A stretch of 32,790 bases of DNA from Collodictyon triciliatum. Lineage: Eukaryota. Every line of letters begins with the position of its first letter. Positions within the stretch are counted from its first letter, which is position 1. The stretch spans positions 1 through 32,790 of the forward strand of contig JBHJMP010000907.1 in the NCBI GenBank assembly GCA_043381765.1. The letters run 5' to 3'. The notes beneath the pieces were generated by a model. That model made no database searches. It had not been told where the DNA came from and was given only the letters and a program-made list of their open reading frames with translations. The position numbers and the translations under genes are program-made. This document shows positions 626 to 31,060 of this stretch, one piece after another.

Positions 626-3600
626 ATGGCCGCGGATCTGTCAGCGATTGTCGCTTTGCTTCCTCCAGTTGGATCGGGTCGAGCAGCTTCGCACGCGACC
701 AAAGACGATCTGACGCAAATGACCCTGATGGACTTGAGTTGGAAGGGAATCACAGAGTTGAGTGAGGCTATTGGGCTTTTGAGAAACCTTCTCGAGCTCA
801 ACCTAGCAAAGAACGAGGTTTCAGTTGCTTATTTTTTCCCCTCATTTTTGTTATGGCCAATGATATTTCAGACTTTTAAGTTGCCTCTCTTCTGATAGAA
901 ATGGTCCAAGCCATCCCCTCTCTGTCCTTTTCTCTCGCAACCTTCCATTCTTTGTCCATTTACCTTGTGATGCCCACAAACTTCCTTAGTTAACTCTAAT
1001 TCCGGAGAGCATCTCTTCCCTAGTGGACCTGATCTCTCTGTCTCTTGATGAAAATCATGTAAGAGTTTAAACCATTCCCACGCATACAAAGCGCAACCAC
1101 ACGCTCAATTCTATATCCAACACAGATATCGGAACTGCCTCAGTCAATTTATCGACTCAGCAATCTGACCTATCTGTCGGTATTTCATAACAAAGTAGGG
1201 TTCTTTTCTCACAAGCAAGAAAACCACACATGTATTACTCATTATATTAAGACACAGTAATGCCATTATAAGGGTTGCTGATGGATACAGAATCCATTCA
1301 TCAACCGCAAATATTGATCACTTCTTTTACACTAGCTGTCTTACCTTCCAGACTCTTTTCAGAATATGCATAAATTGAAGCACTTCAACGCCGTGCGAAA
1401 TCAGGTTATTTTGAACATATCCCATCGATTACTTCCCACTCAAAACGCCAACTGGTGGCACAGTGATCAGATAGTGCATCTCAAAATCTATTGACCCCCT
1501 CGATATCTTATTTTATGGCCATTAATGCGGCCAAATGAATCTCACACCTTACTTAACTCTATTTCCTTACAGTAAAACATGTGTTATCGTCTTATTTAGA
1601 AAAACCCGATTTTCCCCACTCTAATTTTATTATTCTCTTTTTTCGACACCAAATCCAGATCCGTATCCTGCCACCCTCATTCACTCGTCTGGTCTCTCTT
1701 GAGGAGCTTCATGTTGCTTACAATCAAGTAAGCCATTTTTTTTTTTTTATTCTTCCTTTCAATTTTGTGCAGGATGGTGGAAACAATCAAGTACGTTATA
1801 TACAACATAAACACAACTGTTTCATAAAAGGAACCAACGTGAGAAAAAAAAAAAGGAAAAATAACACGTATAAACTAATCTTTTCAGCTGGGCCTTCTGC
1901 CGTTTGGAATCAGCTGCATGACAAATCTTCGATGCATTACATGCCAATTCAATCAGGTGCCTCTCATACCAAATCTCAGAAAACCCTCCAAATACGTGAA
2001 CACATCGCATATGCACTTGAATTTCACCCCTTATTCTCAACTATTCATTCCAAATCACCAGCTTACTGCTATCCCTCATTCGATCGGCCATCTCACCAAA
2101 CTGACTGAGCTCCGTCTCGGCTGCCGCTCCGGGTCACTGGAAAACCTGCCAAACTCAGTACTTGTTTTAATTATCTTGCCTTTTGCATCAAAGAGTAAAC
2201 ACGAATGCACCTTTGACCTAGAACCATAGCTGACCCAATTTTAAACAGATAAAATTATAAATACTACTCACTAATTCAAACATACAAATGCAGATGACCA
2301 AGCTCCCACTTTCCATGCTGAATCTAAAGAGCCTGCGTCAATTGGAGGTTGCACATGTGCCTCTGCAATTCCCACGCCCATCCGTGATTGAAAAAGGGAT
2401 TTCCGCTCTGCGAGAACATCTCTTCAACTTTGCACACGAGCTTGTTCCCCTCAACTATAGCCGTGTTGTTGTGATGGGGCCAGCAAAATCAGGCAAAACC
2501 ACGCTGATCAACACGCTCGTACAGCAGGCCGCTGCCCACTCGGACGCATACGTGCCGACAAACGGAATTGAGATTTGCCGAGAGCCGTTTTCTGTGGCTT
2601 ACGAAGGTGACTTCATTTCGGTGTTTCTATGGGAGTTTGGCGGGGCCGCCATCAGCCGGATCTACTACCCGTTCTTCCTCTCATCGCAGGCGCTGATCCT
2701 CCTCACCTGGGACGCCGCGGACGAAGTAGATATGACAGATTTGCAGGAGTGGGCTCAGCTTGTGCATCTCTTTGCGCCAAGCGCACCTGTCATTGTGGTA
2801 GGCACGCATATGGATCAGGTTGCCGCCGAAGGGATGCCGCAGGCTGAGGCGCGTCTGGACGCGATACGCCGAGTGCTCCTCTCGCCCGAGCACCGTGTCA
2901 ATGTGGTGGACTTTTGCATGGTGCAGAATGCTTTTGACAATGCTCTGCTGAGGCTGCGTGCACAGATGACCCGAGCCATGAGCACGCACGGAGGTGCGCG
3001 CGACTTGTATCCAAACTACTTTCTGCAGTTCTCGCGAGTCACAGACAGCTACACACGATACCAGCCAAGCCCCGTGGCGTGCACAGCAGACCTGCACGAA
3101 AATCTGCGCATGTACCGCCCAGCCATGCTCCTGGACCAGACATTAGCCAAGCTTCACGACCTCGGCATGATTGTGTGGCCCGACCATCCGGCACTGCAGG
3201 ACTTTGCTGTGTGCCATCCGCTCTTTCTCATCCGCCTGTTTGCTCAGGTCTTTTTCCTCGGCCGCACACGCACGGATATGGGCTTTGTCCCGACCGACCG
3301 CCTGCTGGCTCACTACGAAGACACCTTTCCGGGCTTTGCAGAGGCGGCTGTGGCGCTCCTCCGGCGCTTCTTCCTATCATTCTCCTACGTGCTAGGCCAA
3401 TTTGAGGTCTTGCCAGCCCTCATGGCCGACAGCTCGCCCCATCCAAGTATCTGGTCCTGGTTCGGCTCCATCCCCAATTCTGCACACTGTCATGGGCCCG
3501 GGCTTGGACTCGCCCATGTGGAAGTGACCCTCAATGCCCTACCGCCTCTCGTCTTCCACGCCCTTGTATGCCAGCTTTATCCCGACTTCTGGCACGAGTT

Positions 3601-5110
3601 TGACGAGCTGCCTGCGGCCACCTACGAACACATCTCGGCAAATGTTTTTGCATTCATCCTCCCGCGACTCGGCGACACTCACAAAAGCCCAGCTTATCGC
3701 GGCTGCATCGCACGTCTGCCAGCCACTGATCCGCGTATCTTTCTCTCTGCACAGGCGCTAGCTCCGACGCCAGATGCAACCTCGTTCCACTGTCTGCTTG
3801 ATCTTCTGGAGCGCGTGACTCGCGCACTGGCCGCTCTCCGGTGTGTTTGCGTTGAGTCTCGCTTTCTCTTGTGCCCCGTGTGTGCGCAGACACAGCCATC
3901 GCTTGAATGCTGTGGCCGGATCCCGTTAGATCTGGACGAGCTGGGGCAGATTGCTCCTTCTCAGCTCATCCTCTGTGCAAAGGAGGGCATTGGCCATCAG
4001 CAGGCTGTTTGGGTATCACAGCTCGGGGTAGCTGGCGATAAGAGCATGCGCGGTAACGAGAATCCAGACAAGGATTGGTGGCGGCTGCAGCCCGGATGCC
4101 AGCGTCCAGAAATCGACGGGTGTTTCCTACCCAGTCTGCTGCAGATTGAGGCCACACCCGCACGCATGGGTATTGGCTCAAATCTCATCTTCCATGTGCT
4201 TTGTGATCGACCACACAGCCCGCATCGGACAGAGTCGCTAGGCATCCACGTCACCACACGGCAGATGATGGACAAGAAGCCGTGGCTCCACTTCCTGCTG
4301 CGTTTGTGGAAGCCACGCGTGTCCAACGCCCGCATCGAGGCTCTTGAGAATGTGGATGAGAAGGAACTGGCTGCGTGGTTGGTGCTCAAGGGTGCGCGGC
4401 CCTTTCGTCTGCCCCTGACGAGCGCTTTCCGTGACATGCTCTATGCAATGGACCCCCGCGAGGAATGGCGCTTATTTCTGCAGCCAAGTGTCTTGACTGA
4501 CCATCAGCCTCGGTATCTGTGCAAGCATTGCTCCTTTCTAGCTGAGCAAGGCTGGACTTCACAAATCTCATTCACACAGACAACCATCGGTGGGTATATG
4601 CTGTACCGCCATGATTCCATCTTCAAGCCGTGGGAGCGGAGATACTTTCTTTTGGATAAGGCGCGACGGTGTTTGGTGCGCTACTACGACTCCTCCATGG
4701 TTGGACAGACTGGCGTAATATCACTCTCTGGTTCTTATCAGGTTAGAACCCATAGGCTCTCTTTTCTATCTGCTTTCCCTCCATTCTTTTTTTCTACTTT
4801 ATTTTTTCCACTCTTTTTCCTTTTTCCTCTGTACTTTGTTTAGTAAGTGTATACTTCCAATATTAGGTGTCCATACATAATTATGGTGACGATATGGCTG
4901 GGTTCCAAATGATTGTGGATGGAATTATCTACCAGTTTCGTGTACGATATTATATATTTTGTGCATCTAACTTCGTTTTTAGAATTTGTGCAGGGCTTTT
5001 ATCTCAGAAGAGAATTTACAACGGAATCTCCTTATTAATTGTGTATTCTCATTAAGGTGAAAACCACTATCGAAAGAGATTCGTGGGTTGTGCAACTTCA
5101 GAAATGCTGA
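626..5110 (+). CDS. Roco-family protein: LRRs + Roc GTPase + COR + Cys/His-rich region + C-terminal PH domain, no kinase (~1,069 aa)
   Basis: Exons 626-817, 990-1058, 1126-1194, 1336-1404, 1659-1727, 1888-1956, 2062-2157, 2294-4741, 4867-4941 and 5057-5110 join in frame across GT-AG introns. LRRs such as ISELPQSIYRLSNLTYLSVFHNK; LRR cap PLQFPRPSVIEKG; P-loop GPAKSGKTT; switch I PTNGIEI; G3 WEFGG; Roc-type G4 VGTHMD; COR-like LAKLHDLGMIV; PH motifs GGYML...KPWERRYFLL...ERDSWVVQL. Confidence 0.9.
1734..1782. repeat. Short dispersed repeat, copy 1 (Roco intron 1728-1887)
   Basis: caT(n)attcttcctttcaattttgtgcaggatggtggaa closely matches 13199-13243. The reverse complement ends in AATAAA plus an A run. 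Confidence 0.6.
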
Positions 5111-15901: not shown

Positions 15902-18501
15902 ATGTCCGACGTCGAGACCTTTGCCTTTCAGGCAGAAATCAACCAGTTGATGAGCCTTATCATCAACACATTCTACACCAATAAGGAAATCTTTCTCCGC
16001 GAGCTCATCTCCAACGCATCGGATGTATGTACCATCCTCCTAACATACGGACACACGCACATTCAGCTGCTCCAACCGAAGCAATCTTGACCCACCCACA
16101 TTCATGCAGTTTTTTTCAAAGACGGATACATGTTTTCTCCTCACATGACTATCTTTCAATCACCAGGCTCTCGACAAAATCCGCTACGAGTCCCTGACCG
16201 ACTCTTCCAAGTTGGAGTCAAACCCAGAGCTCTACATCCACCTCATCCCTGAAAAAGCCAACAACGTTCTACACATTATCGACTCAGGTATCGGCATGAC
16301 CAAGGCTGACCTCGTCAACTGCCTCGGAACCATCGCAAAGTCTGGAACAAAAGGCTTCATGGAAGCTCTCCAAGCTGGAGCCGATGTCTCTATGATTGGC
16401 CAGTTTGGTGTCGGCTTCTACTCGGCTTATCTTGCAGCCAACCGTGTTGTCGTCACCACCAAGCATAACGACGATGAGCAGTAAGTATATTTGATGGGAA
16501 GCATAAGCCACACGACACACTACACACCATTCTTTTAGTGCGATGCGGTATCTACGAGACTCTCAATCTAACAATCGCTAGATACATCTGGGAGTCCGAA
16601 GCTGGAGGCTCCTTCACCATCCGCCGCGACACAGAGGGCGAACCCCTGAAGCGCGGTACCAAAATCACCTTGTATCTGAAGGAGGACCAGCTCGAGTACC
16701 TGGAGGAGCGTCGCCTCAAAGACCTCGTCAAAAAGCACTCGGAGTTTATCAATTATCCCATCTCTCTGTGGGTCGAGAAGACATCCGAGAAGGAAGTCGA
16801 CGAGGAGGAGGAGGAGTCCAAAGAGGGCAAGGAGGATGAGGACACAAAGATTGAGGACGAGCCCGAAGAAAAGGTGACTGAATTTAGCATCTTTCCGCAA
16901 TCAAAGATAACATCATGACCTCTCACTTCCCAAGAGTCACACGGTCTACTGAATGAGCCTTTTCCACACCTAACCACCATCCTGACTGCATACGTCCCAC
17001 CAAAACAGAAAAAGTCCAAAAAGAAGATTAAGGAGGTTCGCAACGAGTTTGAGCATCTCAACAAGCAGAAGCCCCTGTGGTCGCGCAAGCCCGAGGAGGT
17101 GACCAAGGAGGAGTATGCTGCCTTCTACAAGGCCATCACCAACGACTGGGAAGACCACCTTGCTGTTAAGCACTTCTCTGTGGAAGGCCAGCTGGAGTTC
17201 AAGTCCATCCTCTTTATCCCGCGCCGCACCCCCTTTGACATGTTCGAACCCCGCAAGAAGCTCAACAACATCAAGCTGTACGTCCGCCGCGTCTTCATCA
17301 TGGACAACTGCGAAGAGCTCATCCCCGAGTATCTTAACTTTGTCAAGGGTATTGTCGACTCGGAGGACCTGCCCCTCAACATATCGCGTGAGACCCTGCA
17401 GCAGAACAAGATCCTCAAGGTCATCCGCAAGAACGTCATCAAGAAGTGCCTGGAGCTCTTTGCCGAAATCGCTGAGAACAAGGAGGACTTCAAGAAGTTC
17501 TACGAAAACTTCTCCAAGAACCTGAAGCTGGGCATCCACGAAGATTCTCAAAACCGCGCGAAGCTTGCCGAGTTCCTCCGGTAAGCAGAACCACTTCATC
17601 TAGTAACTTTCTCTCCTTTTTATATCACCATCATTCAATCGACCACGGAGTCTCATCCCTACCGCACAGCTATCAGTCCACCAAGTCAGGCGAGGAGGTG
17701 ACAAGCTTCAAAGACTACGTGACGGGAATGAAGGCCAGCCAGAAGAGCATCTACTACATCACGGGGGAGTCCAAGAGCGCGGTGGCCAACTCGCCGTTCC
17801 TGGAGGCATTCAAGAAGCGGGACATCGAGGTGCTGTTCATGGTGGACCCGATTGACGAGTACGCGGTGCAACAGCTGAAGGAGTTTGACGGCAAGAAGCT
17901 TGTGTGCGTGACGAAGGAAGGGCTAGACCTGGAGGATGAGGACGAGGAGGAGAAGAAGCGCAAGGAGGAGGAGAAGGCATCGTTCGAGGGGCTGACGAAG
18001 GTGATCAAGGACATCCTGGGCGACAAGGTGGAGAAGGTGGTGATTGGGCAGCGCATTGTGGACTCGCCCTGCGTCCTCGTGACCGGGCAGTTCGGCTGGT
18101 CCGCAAACATGGAGCGCATCATGAAGGCCCAGGCCCTGCGTGACTCCTCCACCTCATCCTACATGTCGAGCAAGAAGACGATGGAGATCAACCCGCGCAA
18201 CCCCATTGTGGCGTCGCTGCGCAGGAAGGCCGAGGCCGACAAGAACGACAAGACCGTCAAGGACCTCGTCTGGCTGCTCTACGACACCGCCCTCCTCACC
18301 TCCGGCTTCTCGCTCGACGAGCCCGCCAACTTTGCCGGCCGCATCCACCGCATGATAAAGCTCGGCCTCAGCATCGACGAGGACGACGTCTCGGAATCTG
18401 CCGACTCGGCCGCCGCATCTACAGCCAAAGGTGATGAAAACAGCGACGTTCCGGCCCTCGAGGACGAGTCTGCCGAGTCCAAGATGGAGGAGGTCGACTA
18501 A
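15902..18501 (+). CDS. HSP90: Cytosolic heat shock protein 90
   Basis: Exons 15902-16024, 16167-16480, 16582-16873, 17009-17580 and 17670-18501. Signatures [82 protein letters not shown] and C-terminal MEEVD. Confidence 0.99.
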
Positions 18502-22200: not shown

Positions 22201-25200
22201 CATGTAAACTGTGGTAACCTTCCTCCTTCTCTTCAATTACTTGATAAGCTCCTCGCAGCTGTGCATCCTACAATATGTACAATGTGATTTTCTCCTCCTT
22301 GTAGAAATAACCCTTAGCGATTTTAATCGACAATTTTTTGAGGTGATAAAAAGTCTCCAAGGATATTTAGACGTAATCATGAAATAGAAACGAACCAGAG
22401 TGGCAACCCTCTCTTTGTATGGAGCTATCTGTGCTGCAATGTGTTCTTCGTTGGTATCAATCCTGGAGGAAACCTTCTCCACAGAAGGCACTTGGGCTTT
22501 CGGGAACTTTATTTTTATTTATTTACAATCAAGAAAAAGTCATAAAATCATAGAACTCAAAGTTGGAACTTTGCTTTAATTTGCGGGATTAAGTCATTTT
22601 TTTTTAAAAAAGATATAAATTGAAAATGTAATAAAATACTAAGAAAAGAGGGGAAAGAAGAGGAGCCATATAGATTAAAAAATAAGAAAAAAAAGAAAAT
22701 CATTTAGAGAGCACATAAACTAAATCAAACGATAAAGAATTGATTAGAGTAATAAAATATTCATCTCATACCAATTCCGTGAAAGAATCCAACTTCATCC
22801 ACGACTCTTCAACCTTCCCTGACACTGAATACCGCACATAAATCCATGAAAATGGAGGAATGTCGACTCTTTTGACAGTTGATAGTAATTCCCTCTCTTC
22901 TTTGAGAGCGGGCAACGCAGAGGACTGGTAATGGATTTATGGTAATTTGTAAACGAAGCACATTATATTCAAAGCTTTTACAATGTTTTTGGTTTGCTTA
23001 AATCTTTTCTAATTTCAAAATTCTATGCCAAAGCTATCCTACAATGACAGGGTTTGTGATGTTGTATACTTACGTCTTTCTTTGGGAAAAAAACTGGTGT
23101 CACTACGTGCTTTCCCAGGTCAGTAAACTTTTGACCAATAGATGAGTGACTCGACTTCAATTCAGTTTTCAGTTGGGCCAGTTCCCTTTCTCTTTCTTTC
23201 AACTGGTGTTCAAGTGAAGTGATCTAAGTATGATGGTTACTTTTAAGTATGAATATATTGGCAAACTGAATTATATAAAAATTACAAAAAATCCAAAAAA
23301 AATCCAAAAAAATCCAAAAAAATCCAAAAAAATCCAAAAAAATCCAAAAAATCTAAATATGAAACAAAATAATTGAAAAAATAAAACGAATTGAAAAAAA
23401 AGGGAGTGCATAACATACTTTTGATATATTCTCAAAGTTTTCGAGCTGTATTCCAGGGCTTTTCTTCTGCAATATATATATATATATACATATTACAAGA
23501 AAACCGATTACTTATTAGGCATACACTTTCTGATATGCTTATAAGCAGAGAAATGAAAAAATTAAAAGCATTATACAAAGAAAAGATGCCATTACCACCG
23601 AAACAGCGCTATGTAGTCCTGCAAGAGAATCAAGTATGCCGAGTTTTTTCTCATACAATTCATTAAGTCTTTGAAAGATAGAGTTCAAACTGTCAAAATC
23701 GATCTGATTTTGAGAAGGTAAATCCATGGAACTCACCAGAGCATATATCCCATCCAGTGTTGTTCTGTCATCTTTTGTATCTGAATCAATTTTTGAAAGC
23801 AACTCCACAAAAACCTTATATTTGATCTCCTCTGGTTCCTTTTCATCAGCAGATTCCTTTGGGGTCATGCTTTTACTTTCCAAACTCAAGTCTTTATCCC
23901 GCAGCAAATTTTCGAGATGGTCTCTTTGAGCTGACAAATGAGAAACCTCAGACTCTAGTTGGCAGATTTTCTCGAGAGTGTCTTTCATCCAGAGAATCAG
24001 GTGGTTCTTCAATCCTTCTTTGAACGACTCGATATCCAACACTTGGTTAGTGCTCAATTCACAAACTTGAAGGCCTTCACACTCTTTGTCAATGATTGAT
24101 TTCATATCCCTGTCGATATTGACATTCAATGTGCGTTCAGAAATTCTGCTTTTTGCAACCAAATTTGACCTTTCATCAACCTTAGATATTTCTGCACGCA
24201 GAGATATGCACTCACTCTCCAATGAAGAGTTCTTGTGGCGCAAATCGGTGATGGTTTCTTTGGCTTTATCTTTAATAGCTTCATACTTTTGAATTCTTGA
24301 CTGAAGGTCATTTATGATTCTGTCATATTTTCCAGATTCCACAAGCCACCATTCCTCTTTCTCATGTGCAATTTGTTTCAGAGAGATGATTTCCTTCTCT
24401 GTTTGGCTTTTAACGTCGCTCAGGATTTGATCTTTGGTTCTGAGTTCCTCGAGTAATATCCCTTTTTCATCAGCAAAAACATTTTCATTTTGTTTCAGTG
24501 CGACTATTTCTTGTTTGTGTCTAGTGGCGATTGCCTCACAAGATTCTTTCAATTTGGTTACCTCCTGGCTCTTCCCCTCACACTCTAGTCGAAATTTATC
24601 CCTTTCCTGTTCTAATAGGGTTATTTTACTCTTGAACTCTGTCAGAGTGCTCTTGGCTTTTGATTTGAATGACTCTAATGTTGCTTGGGATTGTCTCAGA
24701 GATTCCTCATGTTCTCCTGTCATGAGCCGAATCCTTTCATCAAGATTTTGAATCATCTCTTCCAGTTGGGCGGTTTTCGATGCTGCTGTATTAAGTTTCA
24801 TAATTTCAGTTAGTTGAGATTCTTCATTAATGTCCTTAGCCAAAATAAGATCTTCTAATGACGCAATCTTGAGTTCTAGTTGGTGAATTTGTGACGTTGA
24901 ATCTTTCATATAATTTTCTCTTTCAGTATCAAAAGTTGATTCCATGTGAAGTAATTTTTCGTTCTCTCTTTCAAGTAAGCTACACTTTTCTTCCAGCTTG
25001 TGAATTATTGCGGATTTTTCGGTTAATTCGCGAACTACAGCTTCCTTTTCCTTTGTTAAAGAACCCACTTGCTCCCTTAGTTGAGTGATAGTTGATTTTG
25101 CCTTGGATTTAAGAGATTCTAATGTTGCGTTAAGCTGACCCAGTTCTTCTTCTTTAGATTTTTGGACATTTGTCAGCTCCTCTGACATGATTGATAATCG

Positions 25201-28200
25201 TGATTCATATTCCGATTTTTTTTGCTCATAAACACTAGACATACTGTTCGTTTCAAATGAAACCTCAGAGGCAAATGTTTTCAACTTATCTAACTGTTGA
25301 TTGCTATCTACGACCTGTATTTTTAAGTAACCTACTTCTTGTTCGAGGCTATTCTTTTCATCTGTAAGTTCTTTAATGCATTCATTTTTTTCATTCAAAG
25401 TCAGAATATGAGACTCTATTTGGTCCTTCAAGGAGTTAGCTTGAGTAGTAAGTTTCTTTATTTGTGACTCACCTTCCTCTATTTGATGGATTAAGTCAGT
25501 AATATCCCCCTTTAAACCACTAATGTCTGCCTCTTTCTCAATTTGAAGCATATCGATTCTCTTTTGATAGTTGGATATTAATTCTTGGCTACCTATTTCA
25601 TCTCCTTGCAAATTCTCGATAATGCCTTCTAATTTGTTTATATGCAGTTGAAGTTGCGATATGCGTTCCTCTAATTTTTTATTAATTTCAGTAACTTCTA
25701 AATTTAGAGATACTTTTTCATCAATGCTTTGCTGAAGGTAAAGAAGCTTTTCTTTCATTTCAAAAGCATCATGAGCTATACTTTGAGCTGGATGCTCACT
25801 GTGAGTAAGCGAAGGTTTCTGAGGTTTAATCACTATCTGCAATCCAAGCTCACTTTGAGAAAAAGTTTCATTTTGCCCATCTTTGAATTCGGAATGCACT
25901 TTCTGTAAATCGATTTGCTCATATCGTTTTCTTTCCTCTGAAATTTGAGTCATTTCCTTGGCCATTTTCAATTCACATCCATGTAGTCTGGCCTTTAGAT
26001 TCTCACATTCTTCTTCAAGATCCATCACTTGTATTTTCAGGTCTGTATTCAAAGACTCCATCGCACGTTTCAGCAATTCAGACTCCTTTTGATGCTGTTC
26101 AATTAAAATCCATTCTTTTTTTGAGAAGTTCGACGAGATGATATCCCATTCTTTTTGCATAGAATCGATTTGCTGCTTCAGTTCCGCAACTTGAGTTTCC
26201 TTTTCACCATCAGTGGAAGATATTGCCTCTTTTTCTTTTTGCAAACCTTCAATCTGTTGCCTCAGTTCCACAATTTGCGTTTCTTTTTCACCATCAGCGG
26301 AAGAAAGTGTCTCTTTTTCTTTTTGCAAAGACTCAATACGCTGCCTCAGTTCCGCGATTTGCGTTTCTTTTTCACCATCAACGGAAGCCAGTGTCTCTTT
26401 TTCGTTTTGCAGAGCTTCAATATGTTCTTTCTGCTCCATTAACTTCGCCTTTGCTTTTGATTTGACTGCCTCAATCAGCTGCCTCAGTTCCGCAATATGC
26501 TTTTCTTTTTCACCATCAGTGGAAGACAGTGCCTCTTTTTCTTTCTGGAGAGCTTCAATACGCTGCCTCAGTTCCACAATTTGCGTTTCTTTTTCACCAT
26601 CAGTGGAAGACAGTGTCTCTTTTTCTTTCTGTAGAGCTTCAATACGCTGCCTCAGTTCCGTAATTTGCATTTCTTTTTCACCATCAGCGGAAGACAGTGC
26701 CTCTTTTTCTTTCTGGAGAGCTTCAATCTGCTGCCTCAGTTCCGCAATTTGCGTTTCTTTTTCACCATCAGTGGAAGTCAGTGTCTCTTTTTCTTTCTGT
26801 AGAGCTTCAATCTGCTGCCTCAGTTCCGCAATTTGCGTTTCTTTTTCACCATCAGCGGAAGTCAGTGTCTCTTTTTCATTTTGGAGAGCCTGTATCTGCT
26901 GCCTCAGTTCCGTAATTTGCATTTCTTTTTCACCATCAGCGGAAGAAAGTGTCTCTTTTTCATTTTGGAGAGCTTCAATCTGCTGCCTCAGTTCCGCAAT
27001 ATGCGTTTCTTTTTCACCATCAGTGGAAGTCAGTGTCTCTTTTTCTTTCTGTAGAGCTTCAATATGCTGCCTCAGTTCCACAATTTGCGTTTCTTTTTCA
27101 CCATCAGCGGAAGTCAGTGTCTCTTTTTCATTTTGGAGAGCCTGTATCTGCTGCCTCAGTTCCGCAATTTGTGTTTCTTTTTCACCATCAGCGGAAGTCA
27201 GTGTCTCTTTTTCTTTTTGGAGAGCTTCAATCTGCTGCCTCAGTTCCGTAATTTGCGTTTCTTTTTCACCATCAGCGGAAGACAGTGCCTCTTTTTCTTT
27301 CTGTAGAGCCTCAATATGTTCCTTCTGCTCCATTAACTTCGCCTTTGCTTTTGCCTTAATATTTTCAATCAGCTCATTCAGTGAGGCTACTTCATCGTTT
27401 TTTTCAATTCTCAATAATCTGATTTGTTCCTCTAGAGTCTTGATAGTACTTTCGAATTTTTTGAATGACTCCTCCGTGGAGCATACACTTTTCTGTGAAA
27501 TAGCGTCATTCTCTAATGCAGATTGTGATTCCAGGGCACAAATTTTTATCTCCAAGTCTGATCTGATTTTCTCTAGAGTAATGATTTCCTCTTCTTTACT
27601 TTTGAGGACTTGGCTAAGTTCGATTATCTTTCTTTTAGCCTTTTCTTTTAAACTTTCGATCAGTAAGTTATTGTGCTGCACGATATCATTCTTTTCTGCT
27701 TCTAGTTTCTGAATGACTGATTGTAAATCATGAAAGTTGGTGCTTGTTTCCTGTGGCGTATCTGTCGAAGAAGGGATATTTGATACATTACCTTCTTTCA
27801 ATCGCTCTTCAAGCAGTTTAATTTTACTCTGTTGCTCGTCAAAGAGTTGCTTAGTTCTGGTCTTTATTTTATTTACCCGGTCTTCATTTTGTGACTGTAT
27901 CTCAGTAATGGTTTGCTGCATGCTTTGGATCAATGAAATAAGATCTTCTTTTGATTTTGTGTCGTAATCTGAAATCTTGCGGTCAGCAGAGATGCTGTTT
28001 TCAAAGACACACTCTTTTTGTCCTTTTTGTTTAAGATCTTCTATTTCCCTCCTCAAGTCAGTGATCAGTTCTTGATTCCTAGTTTGGAAAGATTTGAATT
28101 CCTCCTCCGCACGGTTAAGCATGCTTGTTTTCTCTTCTAATTGATGCTGCAAAGTAGAGATGATAGAGTCATGAGCTCTGGAATCTTCCAGCAGCCTAAG

Positions 28201-29508
28201 ACTTTGATGCTCAGAACCTGCTATGGATTCAATTATGGACCTGCATGATTTTTTTAATTCTTATAAGTACCTGACCAAAATCTGTGATTTGTGTATCAGT
28301 TTATTTTATTTATTTAAACAAAATAATGTAATACAATTTTATAACAGTAGTTACAATAGTAATAATAATAACAATAATAATAACAATAATAATAACAATA
28401 ATAATAACAATAATAATAATTATGATAATAATGACAATAATGACGAAAATAATTATAATAATAATGGAACATGTAATCAAACTTGATCTTTTCTTGATCG
28501 CTAGCGCACAAATATTGCACAGTGCATCTTATTTTCTCAATAACGGATTCATACTCTGAGATATATGATCTAATGGATTCCCTCAAGTAGTTCTATCATG
28601 ATGATGGCAAAATAAGCAAATAATTTAAGTTTGAGAAAATGATTCCACGTCATTTTCAAATATACTTGCAAAGAAGAGGACTAAAAGCCAATGGTATTTG
28701 ATTAAAGTACAATTCAAACTTTAAAATAGTTAAACACAATAGCATAGTATAGTAAAATGGTAGGCACTACATCGAGGACAGGCAGGATTGAAAGAGAAAA
28801 GGAAAATGAACACGATATGGAATAGAGACTCAGTAACATGTGTTTAATATGAAAATAAGGACTCTCGAATATTTTAGGTACTATAAAAAGACCTGGTCGG
28901 TAGGATTCTTTGTTTGTTCTACTGCAACTCTGCCGTCTGTTCTTTTCAGCGACGAAATTATTTCTTCTCTCTCATTTTGAAGCTCACGAAGGTCTTTCAA
29001 ATATAATAGAATATATTTGGAAAAATGAATAAAGATGAATAAAGATGAATAAAGATGAATAAAGATGAATAAAGATGAATAAAGATGAATAAAGATGAAT
29101 AAAGATGAATAAAGATGAATAAAGATATAAAAACGAATAAAAACGAATAAAAAGTGAATAAAAAGTGAATAAGTATATAAATAAAATACGACTCAACAGT
29201 CATTTATCACAATAATACCTCCAGTCAACTTGGCAAGATCAGAGCGAAGCTTATCATTTGAGTCGGCCATTATTTGCAGCTCTTTGCTTTTATCTTTCAC
29301 AGCAATCAAACAAACCCACCCCAAAAAAAGATAAAAGAAAAGTAAGGCGTGAGAGAGACATACAAGAATGGCTTCATACGATGCATCATTTCACTGCACT
29401 GGCGTAGTTTTTTCTCCGTTTTTGTTTCCATGAGATACCTCGCAATGCAGAGTGCGCAGTCTCTAAGTCCAACTCCATGCTGTGGGGCTGTGGAGAGCCG
29501 TCTTCCAT
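19265..29508 (-). CDS. Giant GRIP-domain coiled-coil golgin (plant GRIP/GCC185-like; ~21 exons, ~2,240 aa)
   Basis: ATG at 29508 (MEDGSPQPHSMELDLE); exons traced in frame, including a 4,645-nt exon at 28240-23596. C-terminus LLHLAQ|VQAQRDFEI...KREEVPMEYLKNVMIKYLETGDIE|ALLPVLSTLLQFSPDEI...|GVATLAYFGWGSK* contains the GRIP consensus. EFKKYKSKA motif present; AATAAA ~55 nt after the stop. Confidence 0.9.
19320..19502 (-). repeat. GA-rich (sense-strand CT-rich) expansion in the last golgin intron
   Basis: (GAGAGAAAAAAA)-like units within intron 19307-19598. Confidence 0.95.
23286..23355 (-). repeat. (AAAAAAATCC)n intronic repeat
   Basis: About six ~10-nt units in a golgin intron. Confidence 0.9.
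26170..27315 (-). repeat. Coding tandem array: 13 x 84 nt (28 aa) plus one 54-nt insert
   Basis: Consensus IEALQKEKETLTSADGEKETQIAELRQQ; 10 units, then IEAVKSKAKAKLMEQKEH, then 3 units. 13 x 84 + 54 = 1,146 nt. Confidence 0.97.
28360..28465 (-). repeat. (AAT/AAC)n intronic microsatellite
   Basis: Visible trinucleotide repeat in a golgin intron. Confidence 0.9.
29023..29170 (-). repeat. (GAATAAAGAT)n intronic repeat
   Basis: About ten 10-nt units decaying rightwards, in golgin intron 2. Confidence 0.9.
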
Positions 29509-29808: not shown

Positions 29809-31060
29809 AGATAAAAAAGATAAAAAAGATAAAAAAAATAAAAAAGATAAAAAAGATAAAAAAGATAAAAAAGATAAAAAAGATAAAAAAGATAAAAAAG
29901 ATAAAAAAGATAAAAAAGATAAAAAAGATAAAAAAGATAAAAAAGATAAAAAAGATAAAAAAGATAAAAAAGATAAAAAAGATAAAAAGATAAAAAAGAT
30001 AAAAAAGATAAAAAAGATAAAAAAGATAAAAAAGATAAAAAGATAAAAAAAGATAAAAAAGATAAAAAAGATAAAAAAGATAAAAAAGATAAAAAGATAA
30101 AAAGATAAAAAAGATAAAAAGATAAAAAAGATAAAAAAGATAAAAAAGATAAAAAAGATAAAAAAGATAAAAAAGATAAAAAAGATAAAAAAGATAAAAA
30201 AGATAAAAAAAAGATAAAAAAGATAAAAAAGATAAAAAGATAAAAAAGATAAAAAAGATAAAAAAGATAAAAAGATAAAAAAGATAAAAAGATAAAAAGA
30301 TAAAAAAGATAAAAAGATAAAAAAGATAAAAAAGATAAAAAAGATAAAAAAGATAAAAAAGATAAAAAAAATAAAAAAAGATAAAAAAGATAAAAAAGAT
30401 AAAAAAGATAAAAAAGATAAAAAAGATAAAAAAGATAAAAAAGATAAAAAAGATAAAAAAGATAAAAAAGATAAAAAAGATAAAAAAGATAAAAAAGATA
30501 AAAAAGATAAAAAAGATAAAAAAGATAAAAAAGATAAAAAAGATAAAAAAGATAAAAAAGATAAAAAAAGATAAAAAAAGATAAAAAGATAAAAAAGATA
30601 AAAAGATAAAAAAGATAAAAAAGATAAAAAAGATAAAAAAGATAAAAAAGATAAAAAAGATAAAAAAGATAAAAAAGATAAAAAGATAAAAAAGATAAAA
30701 AGATAAAAAAGATAAAAAAGATAAAAAGATAAAAAAGGTAAAAAAGATAAAAAAGATAAAAAAGATAAAAAAGATAAAAAAAAACATAAAAACATAAAAA
30801 ACATAAAAAAGATAAAAAAGATAAAAAAGATAAAAAGATAAAAAAGATAAAAAAGATAAAAAAGATAAAAAAGATAAAAAAGATAAAAAAGATAAAAAAG
30901 ATAAAAAAGATAAAAAAGATAAAAAAGATAAAAAAGATAAAAAAGATAAAAAAGATAAAAAAAGATAAAAAAAGATAAAAAAAGATAAAAAAGATAAAAA
31001 AGATAAAAAAAGATAAAAAAAGATAAAAAAGATAAAAAAACATAAAAAACATAAAATAAA
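29809..31060. repeat. ~1.25-kb (AAAAAAGAT)n satellite
   Basis: 9-nt unit with shorter and longer A-run variants and a few CAT variants; begins ~300 nt upstream of the golgin ATG. Confidence 0.97.

Follow-up and report, generated by a model that had tools for sequence, protein, structure and literature searches.

In brown algae and ciliates, arrays in which every exon encodes a single leucine-rich repeat (LRR) have been put forward as raw material from which receptors could diversify. Whether such an array is at work in a given gene is the question raised by a locus on a 32,790-nucleotide contig of Collodictyon triciliatum (JBHJMP010000907.1), the whole of which we call the window. Here, a gene for a ROCO GTPase at 626–5110 (+) carries five successive LRR exons of equal length, and the original prediction had read it as a possible modular recognition receptor. 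Our analysis leads to a different answer, namely that this is probably an ordinary, conserved intracellular ROCO signaling gene, whose five-exon array is old, diverged, and fixed in number and order. The locus is a real but ordinary new example of the known one-LRR-per-exon layout, and immune-type diversification is not supported at this locus.

The sequence of the whole window is eukaryotic, and its introns are short and AT-rich. From a start ATG at 626, the gene extends over ten exons, all on the + strand, and yields a 1,069-residue product with the domain order LRR-Roc-COR-PH; the spliced product was assembled by script from borders that were computed for exons 1 to 6 and 8 and read by hand for exons 7, 9, and 10. 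All nine introns have GT-AG borders and lie in phase 0, and the first seven are each placed after the N-x of an LRR unit, which bears out the predicted use of phase-0 introns at one position of the repeat. Exons 2 to 6 (990–1058, 1126–1194, 1336–1404, 1659–1727, and 1888–1956) each comprise 69 nucleotides (nt), with AG before and GT after, begin and end in phase 0, and encode in an open frame one 23-residue LRR of the consensus [LI]xx[LI]Pxx[IF]xx[LM]xxLxx[LFI]x[LVAC]xxNx. Borders, frame, and translation thus confirm the five exons as originally proposed, and the accompanying argument that skipping or duplicating any unit would preserve the reading frame is arithmetically true, given the equal lengths and phase 0. 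In total, the gene has eight LRR units, five of which fill an exon of their own, while three share exon 1, exon 7, and exon 8. Exon 1 (626–817; 192 nt) contains the start codon, an N-terminal cap, and LRR unit 1 (749–817) and ends in phase 0 after N-E; exon 7 (2062–2157; 96 nt, phase 0-0) consists of LRR unit 7 and nine further residues. Exon 8 (2294–4741; 2,448 nt) holds LRR unit 8, the Roc GTPase, a COR-like region, a region of conserved cysteines and histidines, and the start of the PH domain, which continues in exon 9 (4867–4941) and ends, stop codon included, in exon 10 (5057–5110).

The spliced model aligns end to end with the protein P0001, the complete open reading frame of a Trinity transcript from Diphylleia rotans (EukProt EP00002), with 434 of 1,035 aligned residues identical. 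Exon 1 aligns with P0001 from residue 1, and over residues 42 to 234, as in exon 7, the alignment is gapless, so that no insertion or deletion is produced by any exon border. Compared with the P0001 units at the same positions, identity amounts to 16/23 residues for unit 1, 14/23 for exons 3 and 6, 10/23 for exon 5, and 7/23 for exon 4, the most diverged unit; exon 2 scores 29.8 bits against an LRR-unit profile that was built from these units. At the level of sequence comparison, this agreement confirms that the gene model and its one-LRR-per-exon layout are real and beyond chance. Assembled contigs cover individual parts. In an RNA library (run X7), one contig (record 21) joins position 2157 directly to 2294 with no differences, its short side measuring only 19 letters and falling below the 31-letter rule. 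Parts of exon 8 are covered by RNA-library contigs (X3, X7) and by X1 contigs with zero to three differences, and a DNA contig of run X2 spans 1280–1547, that is, exon 4 and both of its intron sides, with four differences. The shares of words found in the searched runs are small (0.07–0.15), and no contig of runs X1, X2, X3, and X7 spans exons 1 to 3, 5, or 6, exon 4 being spanned only by the X2 DNA contig.

The identification of the protein as a member of the ROCO family, which the original prediction had also made, stands. The Roc GTPase (2462–2815, +; exon-8 residues 57–174) matches PF08477 with an E of 1.7e-13 and 51.3 bits (cut-off 27), and it displays the P-loop GPAKSGKT, the switch II motif WEFGG, and the G4 motif THMD. 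Nine family sequences all have G62, G67, K68, W113, G117, T171, and D174 (exon-8 numbering), which include residues of the P-loop, the switch II glycine, and the G4 residues. Among solved structures, the best sequence match to exon 8 is the Roc domain of LRRK2 (E 9.9e-13; alignments extend to query residue 321), with the Roc domain of LRRK1 and Roco proteins from Chlorobium tepidum and Methanosarcina barkeri also among the best relatives. The COR-like region (2966–4020, +) is recognized by its predicted fold, and its limits are approximate, as the fold search returned no ranges. An AlphaFold2 model of exon 8, made with eight relatives (mean pLDDT 71.7) and compared by Foldseek, matches LRRK2 and LRRK1 structures with E values down to 3.1e-21, the Roc-COR tandem of C. 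tepidum (3dpu_A) with E 1.3e-17 and a TMt, calculated on the target, of 0.67, and the isolated COR domain 3dpt_B with E 1.7e-8 and TMt 0.65. A COR domain directly after Roc is present in the predicted fold only; the Pfam family COR-A gave no match in this protein at E ≤0.01 and stayed below cut-off in five of seven relatives (21–29 bits versus 35.3). The PH domain (4586–5110, +) is formed by the end of exon 8 together with exons 9 and 10, being split by introns 8 and 9, and this region aligns with residues 946–1039 of P0001 (PF00169, E 3e-6) with 48 of 94 residues identical. Exon 1 alone had no match in Pfam. The LRRs of P0001 match LRR_8 at E 1.6e-19, and the eight units of the window align to them gaplessly, which supports the assignment of an N-terminal LRR domain and of the LRR-Roc-COR arrangement. 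The Roc match, the Roc-COR fold, and the PH alignment together therefore indicate a kinase-less ROCO protein of LRR-Roc-COR-PH type.

In its predicted exon-8 fold, the protein resembles LRRK1, LRRK2, and the C. tepidum Roco protein (3dpu, 6hlu), with which it shares the Roc-COR core, and among solved structures its Roc sequence is closest to that of LRRK2. A kinase-less LRR-Roc-COR protein is also known from animals, namely MFHAS1. Unlike described LRR-Roc-COR proteins, however, the protein encoded here continues after COR with a stretch of about 270 residues containing conserved cysteines and histidines, followed by the PH domain. Within this stretch (3872–4531; exon-8 residues 527–746), a CPxC motif (C527, P528, C530) and C637, H644, C743, and C746 are invariant in nine family members, and these residues may form one or two metal sites. 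A separate peculiarity is found in switch II, where the DxxG motif reads E-F-G-G (2633–2635, exon-8 residue 114), whereas relatives have D at the first position (D-F-G-G in P0001).

If the five exons were being shuffled, the pattern described for active systems would lead one to look for near-identical exon copies and for relics in the introns, and neither is found at this locus. At the DNA level, exons 2 to 6 agree in only 23–34 of 69 bases, and all eight units among themselves in 21–34 of 69 bases and 4–10 of 23 residues. Similarly low values are typical of the family as a whole: in all nine family proteins (44 units passing a strict filter), the best pair of units within a gene reaches no more than 10–11 of 23 residues. 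Direct and inverted repeats between positions 500 and 5300 do not exceed 24 nt in length. We also searched all six frames of the window with an LRR-unit profile built from 16 units, which returned only the eight coding units (23.6–36.5 bits), a match by construction; the best intronic score was 3.3 bits and the best score elsewhere in the window 10.5 bits. By this profile, the 32.8-kilobase window has no further LRR or ROCO gene, and by the profile together with the comparison of exon and intron DNA, there is no decayed or antisense LRR exon in any intron. The latter comparison, carried out on both strands in 70 combinations, produced only a 20-nt and an 11-nt match.

A fixed exon order, which had been named beforehand as speaking against a receptor, is what we observe, the number and order of units being the same as in P0001. 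Units at the same position share on average 11.1 of 23 residues with their P0001 counterparts, versus 7.0 off the diagonal. When the unit order was permuted, the observed sum was reached in 4 of 100,000 permutations for the eight units and in 813 of 100,000 for the five exons alone; the latter is about 1 in 120, which means that the true order scores highest among all 120 possibilities. Against the more distant P0002, the shared order likewise holds for the eight units, 270 of 100,000 permutations reaching the observed value. The stretch preceding the Roc exon comprises about 211 residues in the window, in P0001, and in P0002.

The repeats are also no less conserved than the GTPase core. Relative to P0001, the LRR units are identical in 90 of 193 residues (47%) without a gap and the five 69-nt exons in 53 of 115 (46%), compared with 83 of 211 (39%) for the Roc part and 136 of 338 (40%) for the COR-like part. 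Of the purifying selection that had been named as a further sign against a receptor, what stands is constraint on the LRR part, as indicated at the level of protein identity by 47% without insertions or deletions versus 39–40% for Roc and COR. Counted by hand, identity with P0001 was 46/72 at scaffold positions, 15/40 at the presumed concave-face positions (the five x of LxxLxLxxN), and 28/72 at the other x positions; by this amino acid rather than codon-level measure, no excess of change is indicated at the presumed concave face (15/40 versus 28/72). Isoforms give a similar picture. None of the inspected D. rotans isoforms (P0151 to P0156 with their representatives, and P0015, P0161, and P0164) differs by LRR units; instead, some retain an intron in the PH domain, and others are truncated at the 5′ end or differ by a six-residue insertion or deletion. 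In the first case, the pairs P0002/P0151, P0007/P0155, and P0008/P0156 diverge into unrelated sequence where introns 8 and 9 sit, which fits the retention of introns at conserved positions. Taken together, the diverged exons, the unit order shared with P0001, the introns free of relic exons, and an LRR part as conserved as the GTPase core do not bear out the inference of a recognition receptor.

A search with exon 8 against 1.84 billion representative proteins gave 3,589 matches at E ≤0.001 and eight at E ≤1e-30, and these eight are all D. rotans transcripts, each belonging to a Trinity gene of its own. Five of ten further matches that we looked up were likewise from D. rotans, making 13 of 18 looked-up representatives in all. 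The single-copy state that had been listed with the fixed order and purifying selection does not apply at the family level, as there are at least eight paralogous D. rotans transcripts; these are old and diverged rather than near-identical. The prediction that a ROCO gene with one LRR per exon occurs in a lineage other than brown algae was correct, since D. rotans provides the best named relatives both of this gene and of the adjoining HSP90 gene. The latter lies at about 16919–18501 (+) and is represented by two overlapping open frames, 16919–17584 and 17476–18501 (PF00183, E 1.8e-100 and 1e-109), so that an intron or a frame change lies between them. For the piece 17476–18501, D. rotans is the best named relative with 84% identity; a protein from a metagenome reaches 92%, and no other listed protein exceeds 77%. 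These matches mark the source, a freshwater protist, as a relative of Diphylleia distinct from D. rotans. Two metagenome scans for genomic relatives of the ROCO gene, one with alignment A2 and one with a single protein, found none. A full-text literature search found no published description of an LRR-Roc-COR-PH subfamily for the Diphylleia lineage, and a search on ROCO proteins with a PH domain had nothing on this architecture among the matches listed. Among the D. rotans ROCO transcripts, P0015/P0161/P0164, of up to 2,409 residues, continue for about 1,100 residues beyond Roc-COR and show, by eye, a second P-loop-like motif.

Several observations weigh against an old and fixed array. The 20-nt match mentioned above connects 1547–1566 in intron 4 to 984–1003, that is, to the acceptor and the first 14 bases of exon 2, with 18 of 20 bases identical and the acceptor AG changed to AC. 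Its z score is 6.6 relative to mononucleotide shuffles, none of 200 shuffles reached it, and the likeness ends after the 20 nt; it might be the relic of a lost exon copy or a chance likeness in pyrimidine-rich sequence. The order of the five exons is not significant when compared with P0002 (15,606 of 100,000 permutations), and for exons 2 and 4 the best-matching P0001 unit lies at another position. The RNA contigs cover none of the five 69-nt exons, whose constitutive splicing is an assumption, and both the presumed assignment of concave-face classes and the manual count of identities by position limit the comparison of exposed residues. The comparison of unit numbers covers D. rotans transcripts, and recent paralogues with other unit numbers may occur in C. 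triciliatum itself. Finally, the eight D. rotans paralogues of the Roc-COR-PH subfamily differ widely in what precedes Roc, from about 160 to 733 residues, and this spread of LRR length among old paralogues implies that units were gained or lost at some time.

It is this last point that keeps open a slower kind of modularity. The 69-nt LRR exon could be a common building block of diphylleid ROCO and surface LRR genes, gained and lost over long times to give arcs of a few to about thirty units, with the present gene as an old and now frozen case. The variable N-terminal LRR part of the eight paralogues and the placement of seven introns at one position of the repeat would be in line with such a history. 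For the paralogues, which are represented by transcripts, single-exon LRRs would be an assumption, as would the timing of any gain or loss; we regard the scenario as possible but rather unlikely. Much less probable still is a working generator of diversity, in which LRR exons would be skipped, duplicated, or exchanged by splicing or recombination with other loci so that an immune-type receptor would gain a variable binding surface, as suggested for the LRR-ROCO genes of brown algae. Equal lengths and phase-0 borders would indeed keep every such rearrangement in frame, and ROCO transcripts are numerous in D. rotans, as the looked-up representatives illustrate. On the other hand, the exons are diverged, intronic or antisense relic exons are missing, the inspected D. 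rotans relatives show no LRR-unit isoforms, divergence in the LRR part does not exceed that in Roc-COR, the window contains no other LRR or ROCO gene, and the units agree in number and order with those of P0001 from D. rotans, a species distant enough that its HSP90 piece is only 84% identical. That a once single-exon LRR arc later received introns at the equivalent context of each repeat, with no exon duplication, would agree with units as unlike each other as unrelated LRRs and with introns that have no common sequence, but it is highly improbable, as it requires seven independent insertions at exactly one codon border where an old exon duplication explains the data by one process.

Under the preferred reading of an ordinary, conserved signaling gene, tandem copying of an exon-plus-intron unit would have built the LRR arc long ago, leaving the 69-nt exons as a relic of that process. 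The units would since have diverged while their number and order were kept; the cassette permits in-frame skipping and swapping, and nothing indicates present use of this capacity, be it in the cell or in the lineage. From what is known of ROCO proteins in general, the arc of about eight LRRs might bind a fixed protein partner or fold back on the GTPase, Roc would cycle between GTP and GDP within a COR-mediated dimer, and the PH domain may place the protein at a membrane.

The array can be compared with three published systems. The LRR-ROCO genes of the brown algae Ectocarpus and Saccharina feature 72-nt "type I LRR exons" (Zambounis et al. 2012, PMC3341825; Teng et al. 2024, PMC11378527), which are in phase 2 (Teng et al. 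2024, PMC11378527) and encode the unit GxxPxxLxxxxxLxxLxLxxNxLx with a border, in Ectocarpus, after N-x-L-x (PMC3341825, PMC11378527). In these algae, active shuffling is marked by noncoding or antisense LRR exons in introns, positive selection on the concave face, and alternative LRR isoforms, and two recent, near-identical Ectocarpus duplicates differ in having 13 versus 17 LRRs (PMC3341825, PMC11378527). The present gene shares with them the LRR-Roc-COR order without a kinase and successive LRRs on their own exons of constant length and symmetric phase, a property that here extends to five of the eight units. It differs in its exons, which are 69 rather than 72 nt long, in phase 0 rather than 2, and bordered two residues earlier (after N-x), and in its C-terminal PH domain. 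It differs as well from what is described for the algal genes in lacking both relic exons, whether intronic or antisense, and exons that are nearly identical, in a unit number that is the same in distant relatives, unlike that of the Ectocarpus duplicates, and in that no alternative LRR isoforms were seen in the inspected D. rotans relatives.

Arrays of exactly 90-bp exons in phase 2 are found in the LRR genes of Tetrahymena, where the genes concerned number in the thousands and are young and species-specific (Xiong et al. 2019, PMC6564038). Both systems combine LRR exons of equal length with a single intron phase throughout, a pattern interpreted as having been left by exon duplication, whereas the array described here is a single, short, and old one of 69-nt phase-0 exons in a conserved gene. 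The third comparison is with the gonadotropin (LH) receptor, which has one LRR per exon and all introns in phase 2 (as cited in PMC11378527). It provides a parallel of a stable gene in which one-LRR exons in a single phase are a historical trace, although there the phase is 2, the exons encode the extracellular domain of a G-protein-coupled receptor, and the lineage is that of animals. The differing exon length, phase, and border make an independent origin of the present exon layout likely.

Intron 5 carries two further features. At 1781–1792, the end of exon 5 with its donor (ACAATCAAGTA) is repeated 63 nt downstream in the intron as an 11-base match, and use of the GT of this repeat would, as read by eye, add 21 in-frame codons without a stop. 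In addition, a piece of about 45 nt (1734–1783), in which unique sequence follows a run of T, has matches with two to five differences in many different X1 and X2 contigs, whose flanking sequences resemble neither the window nor one another (summed word depth in X1, 1278). The piece may be a short dispersed repeat; it has a single copy in the window and belongs to no Rfam family, and at gathering thresholds, no Rfam RNA family was found anywhere in the window. Away from the ROCO and HSP90 genes, the window contains a 1,573-codon open frame at 23539–28260 (−) in which no Pfam family exceeds its cut-off, only DUF6127 being detected at 21 bits (cut-off 27), and a purine-rich, A-rich low-complexity stretch at 30001–31000 (G+C 0.11, GC skew 0.95, AT skew 0.75).

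The locus thus adds a further ROCO example from a deep, little-sampled eukaryotic branch and indicates that the one-LRR-per-exon layout arises repeatedly, here with another length, phase, and border. Since the layout sits unchanged in a conserved gene, the layout alone is no evidence of an immune-type function, and the locus can serve as a control case for it. A bolder proposal, which we consider doubtful, is that the diphylleids, on the CRuMs branch, arrived at a 69-nt, symmetric-phase one-LRR exon of their own, independently of those in brown algae and ciliates, and deployed it across expanded ROCO GTPases and surface LRR proteins, with gain, loss, and exchange giving arcs of about 5 to 30 units and the present gene being a frozen member. 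If this were true, exon-based diversification of LRR receptors would have arisen independently for a third time, in diphylleids.

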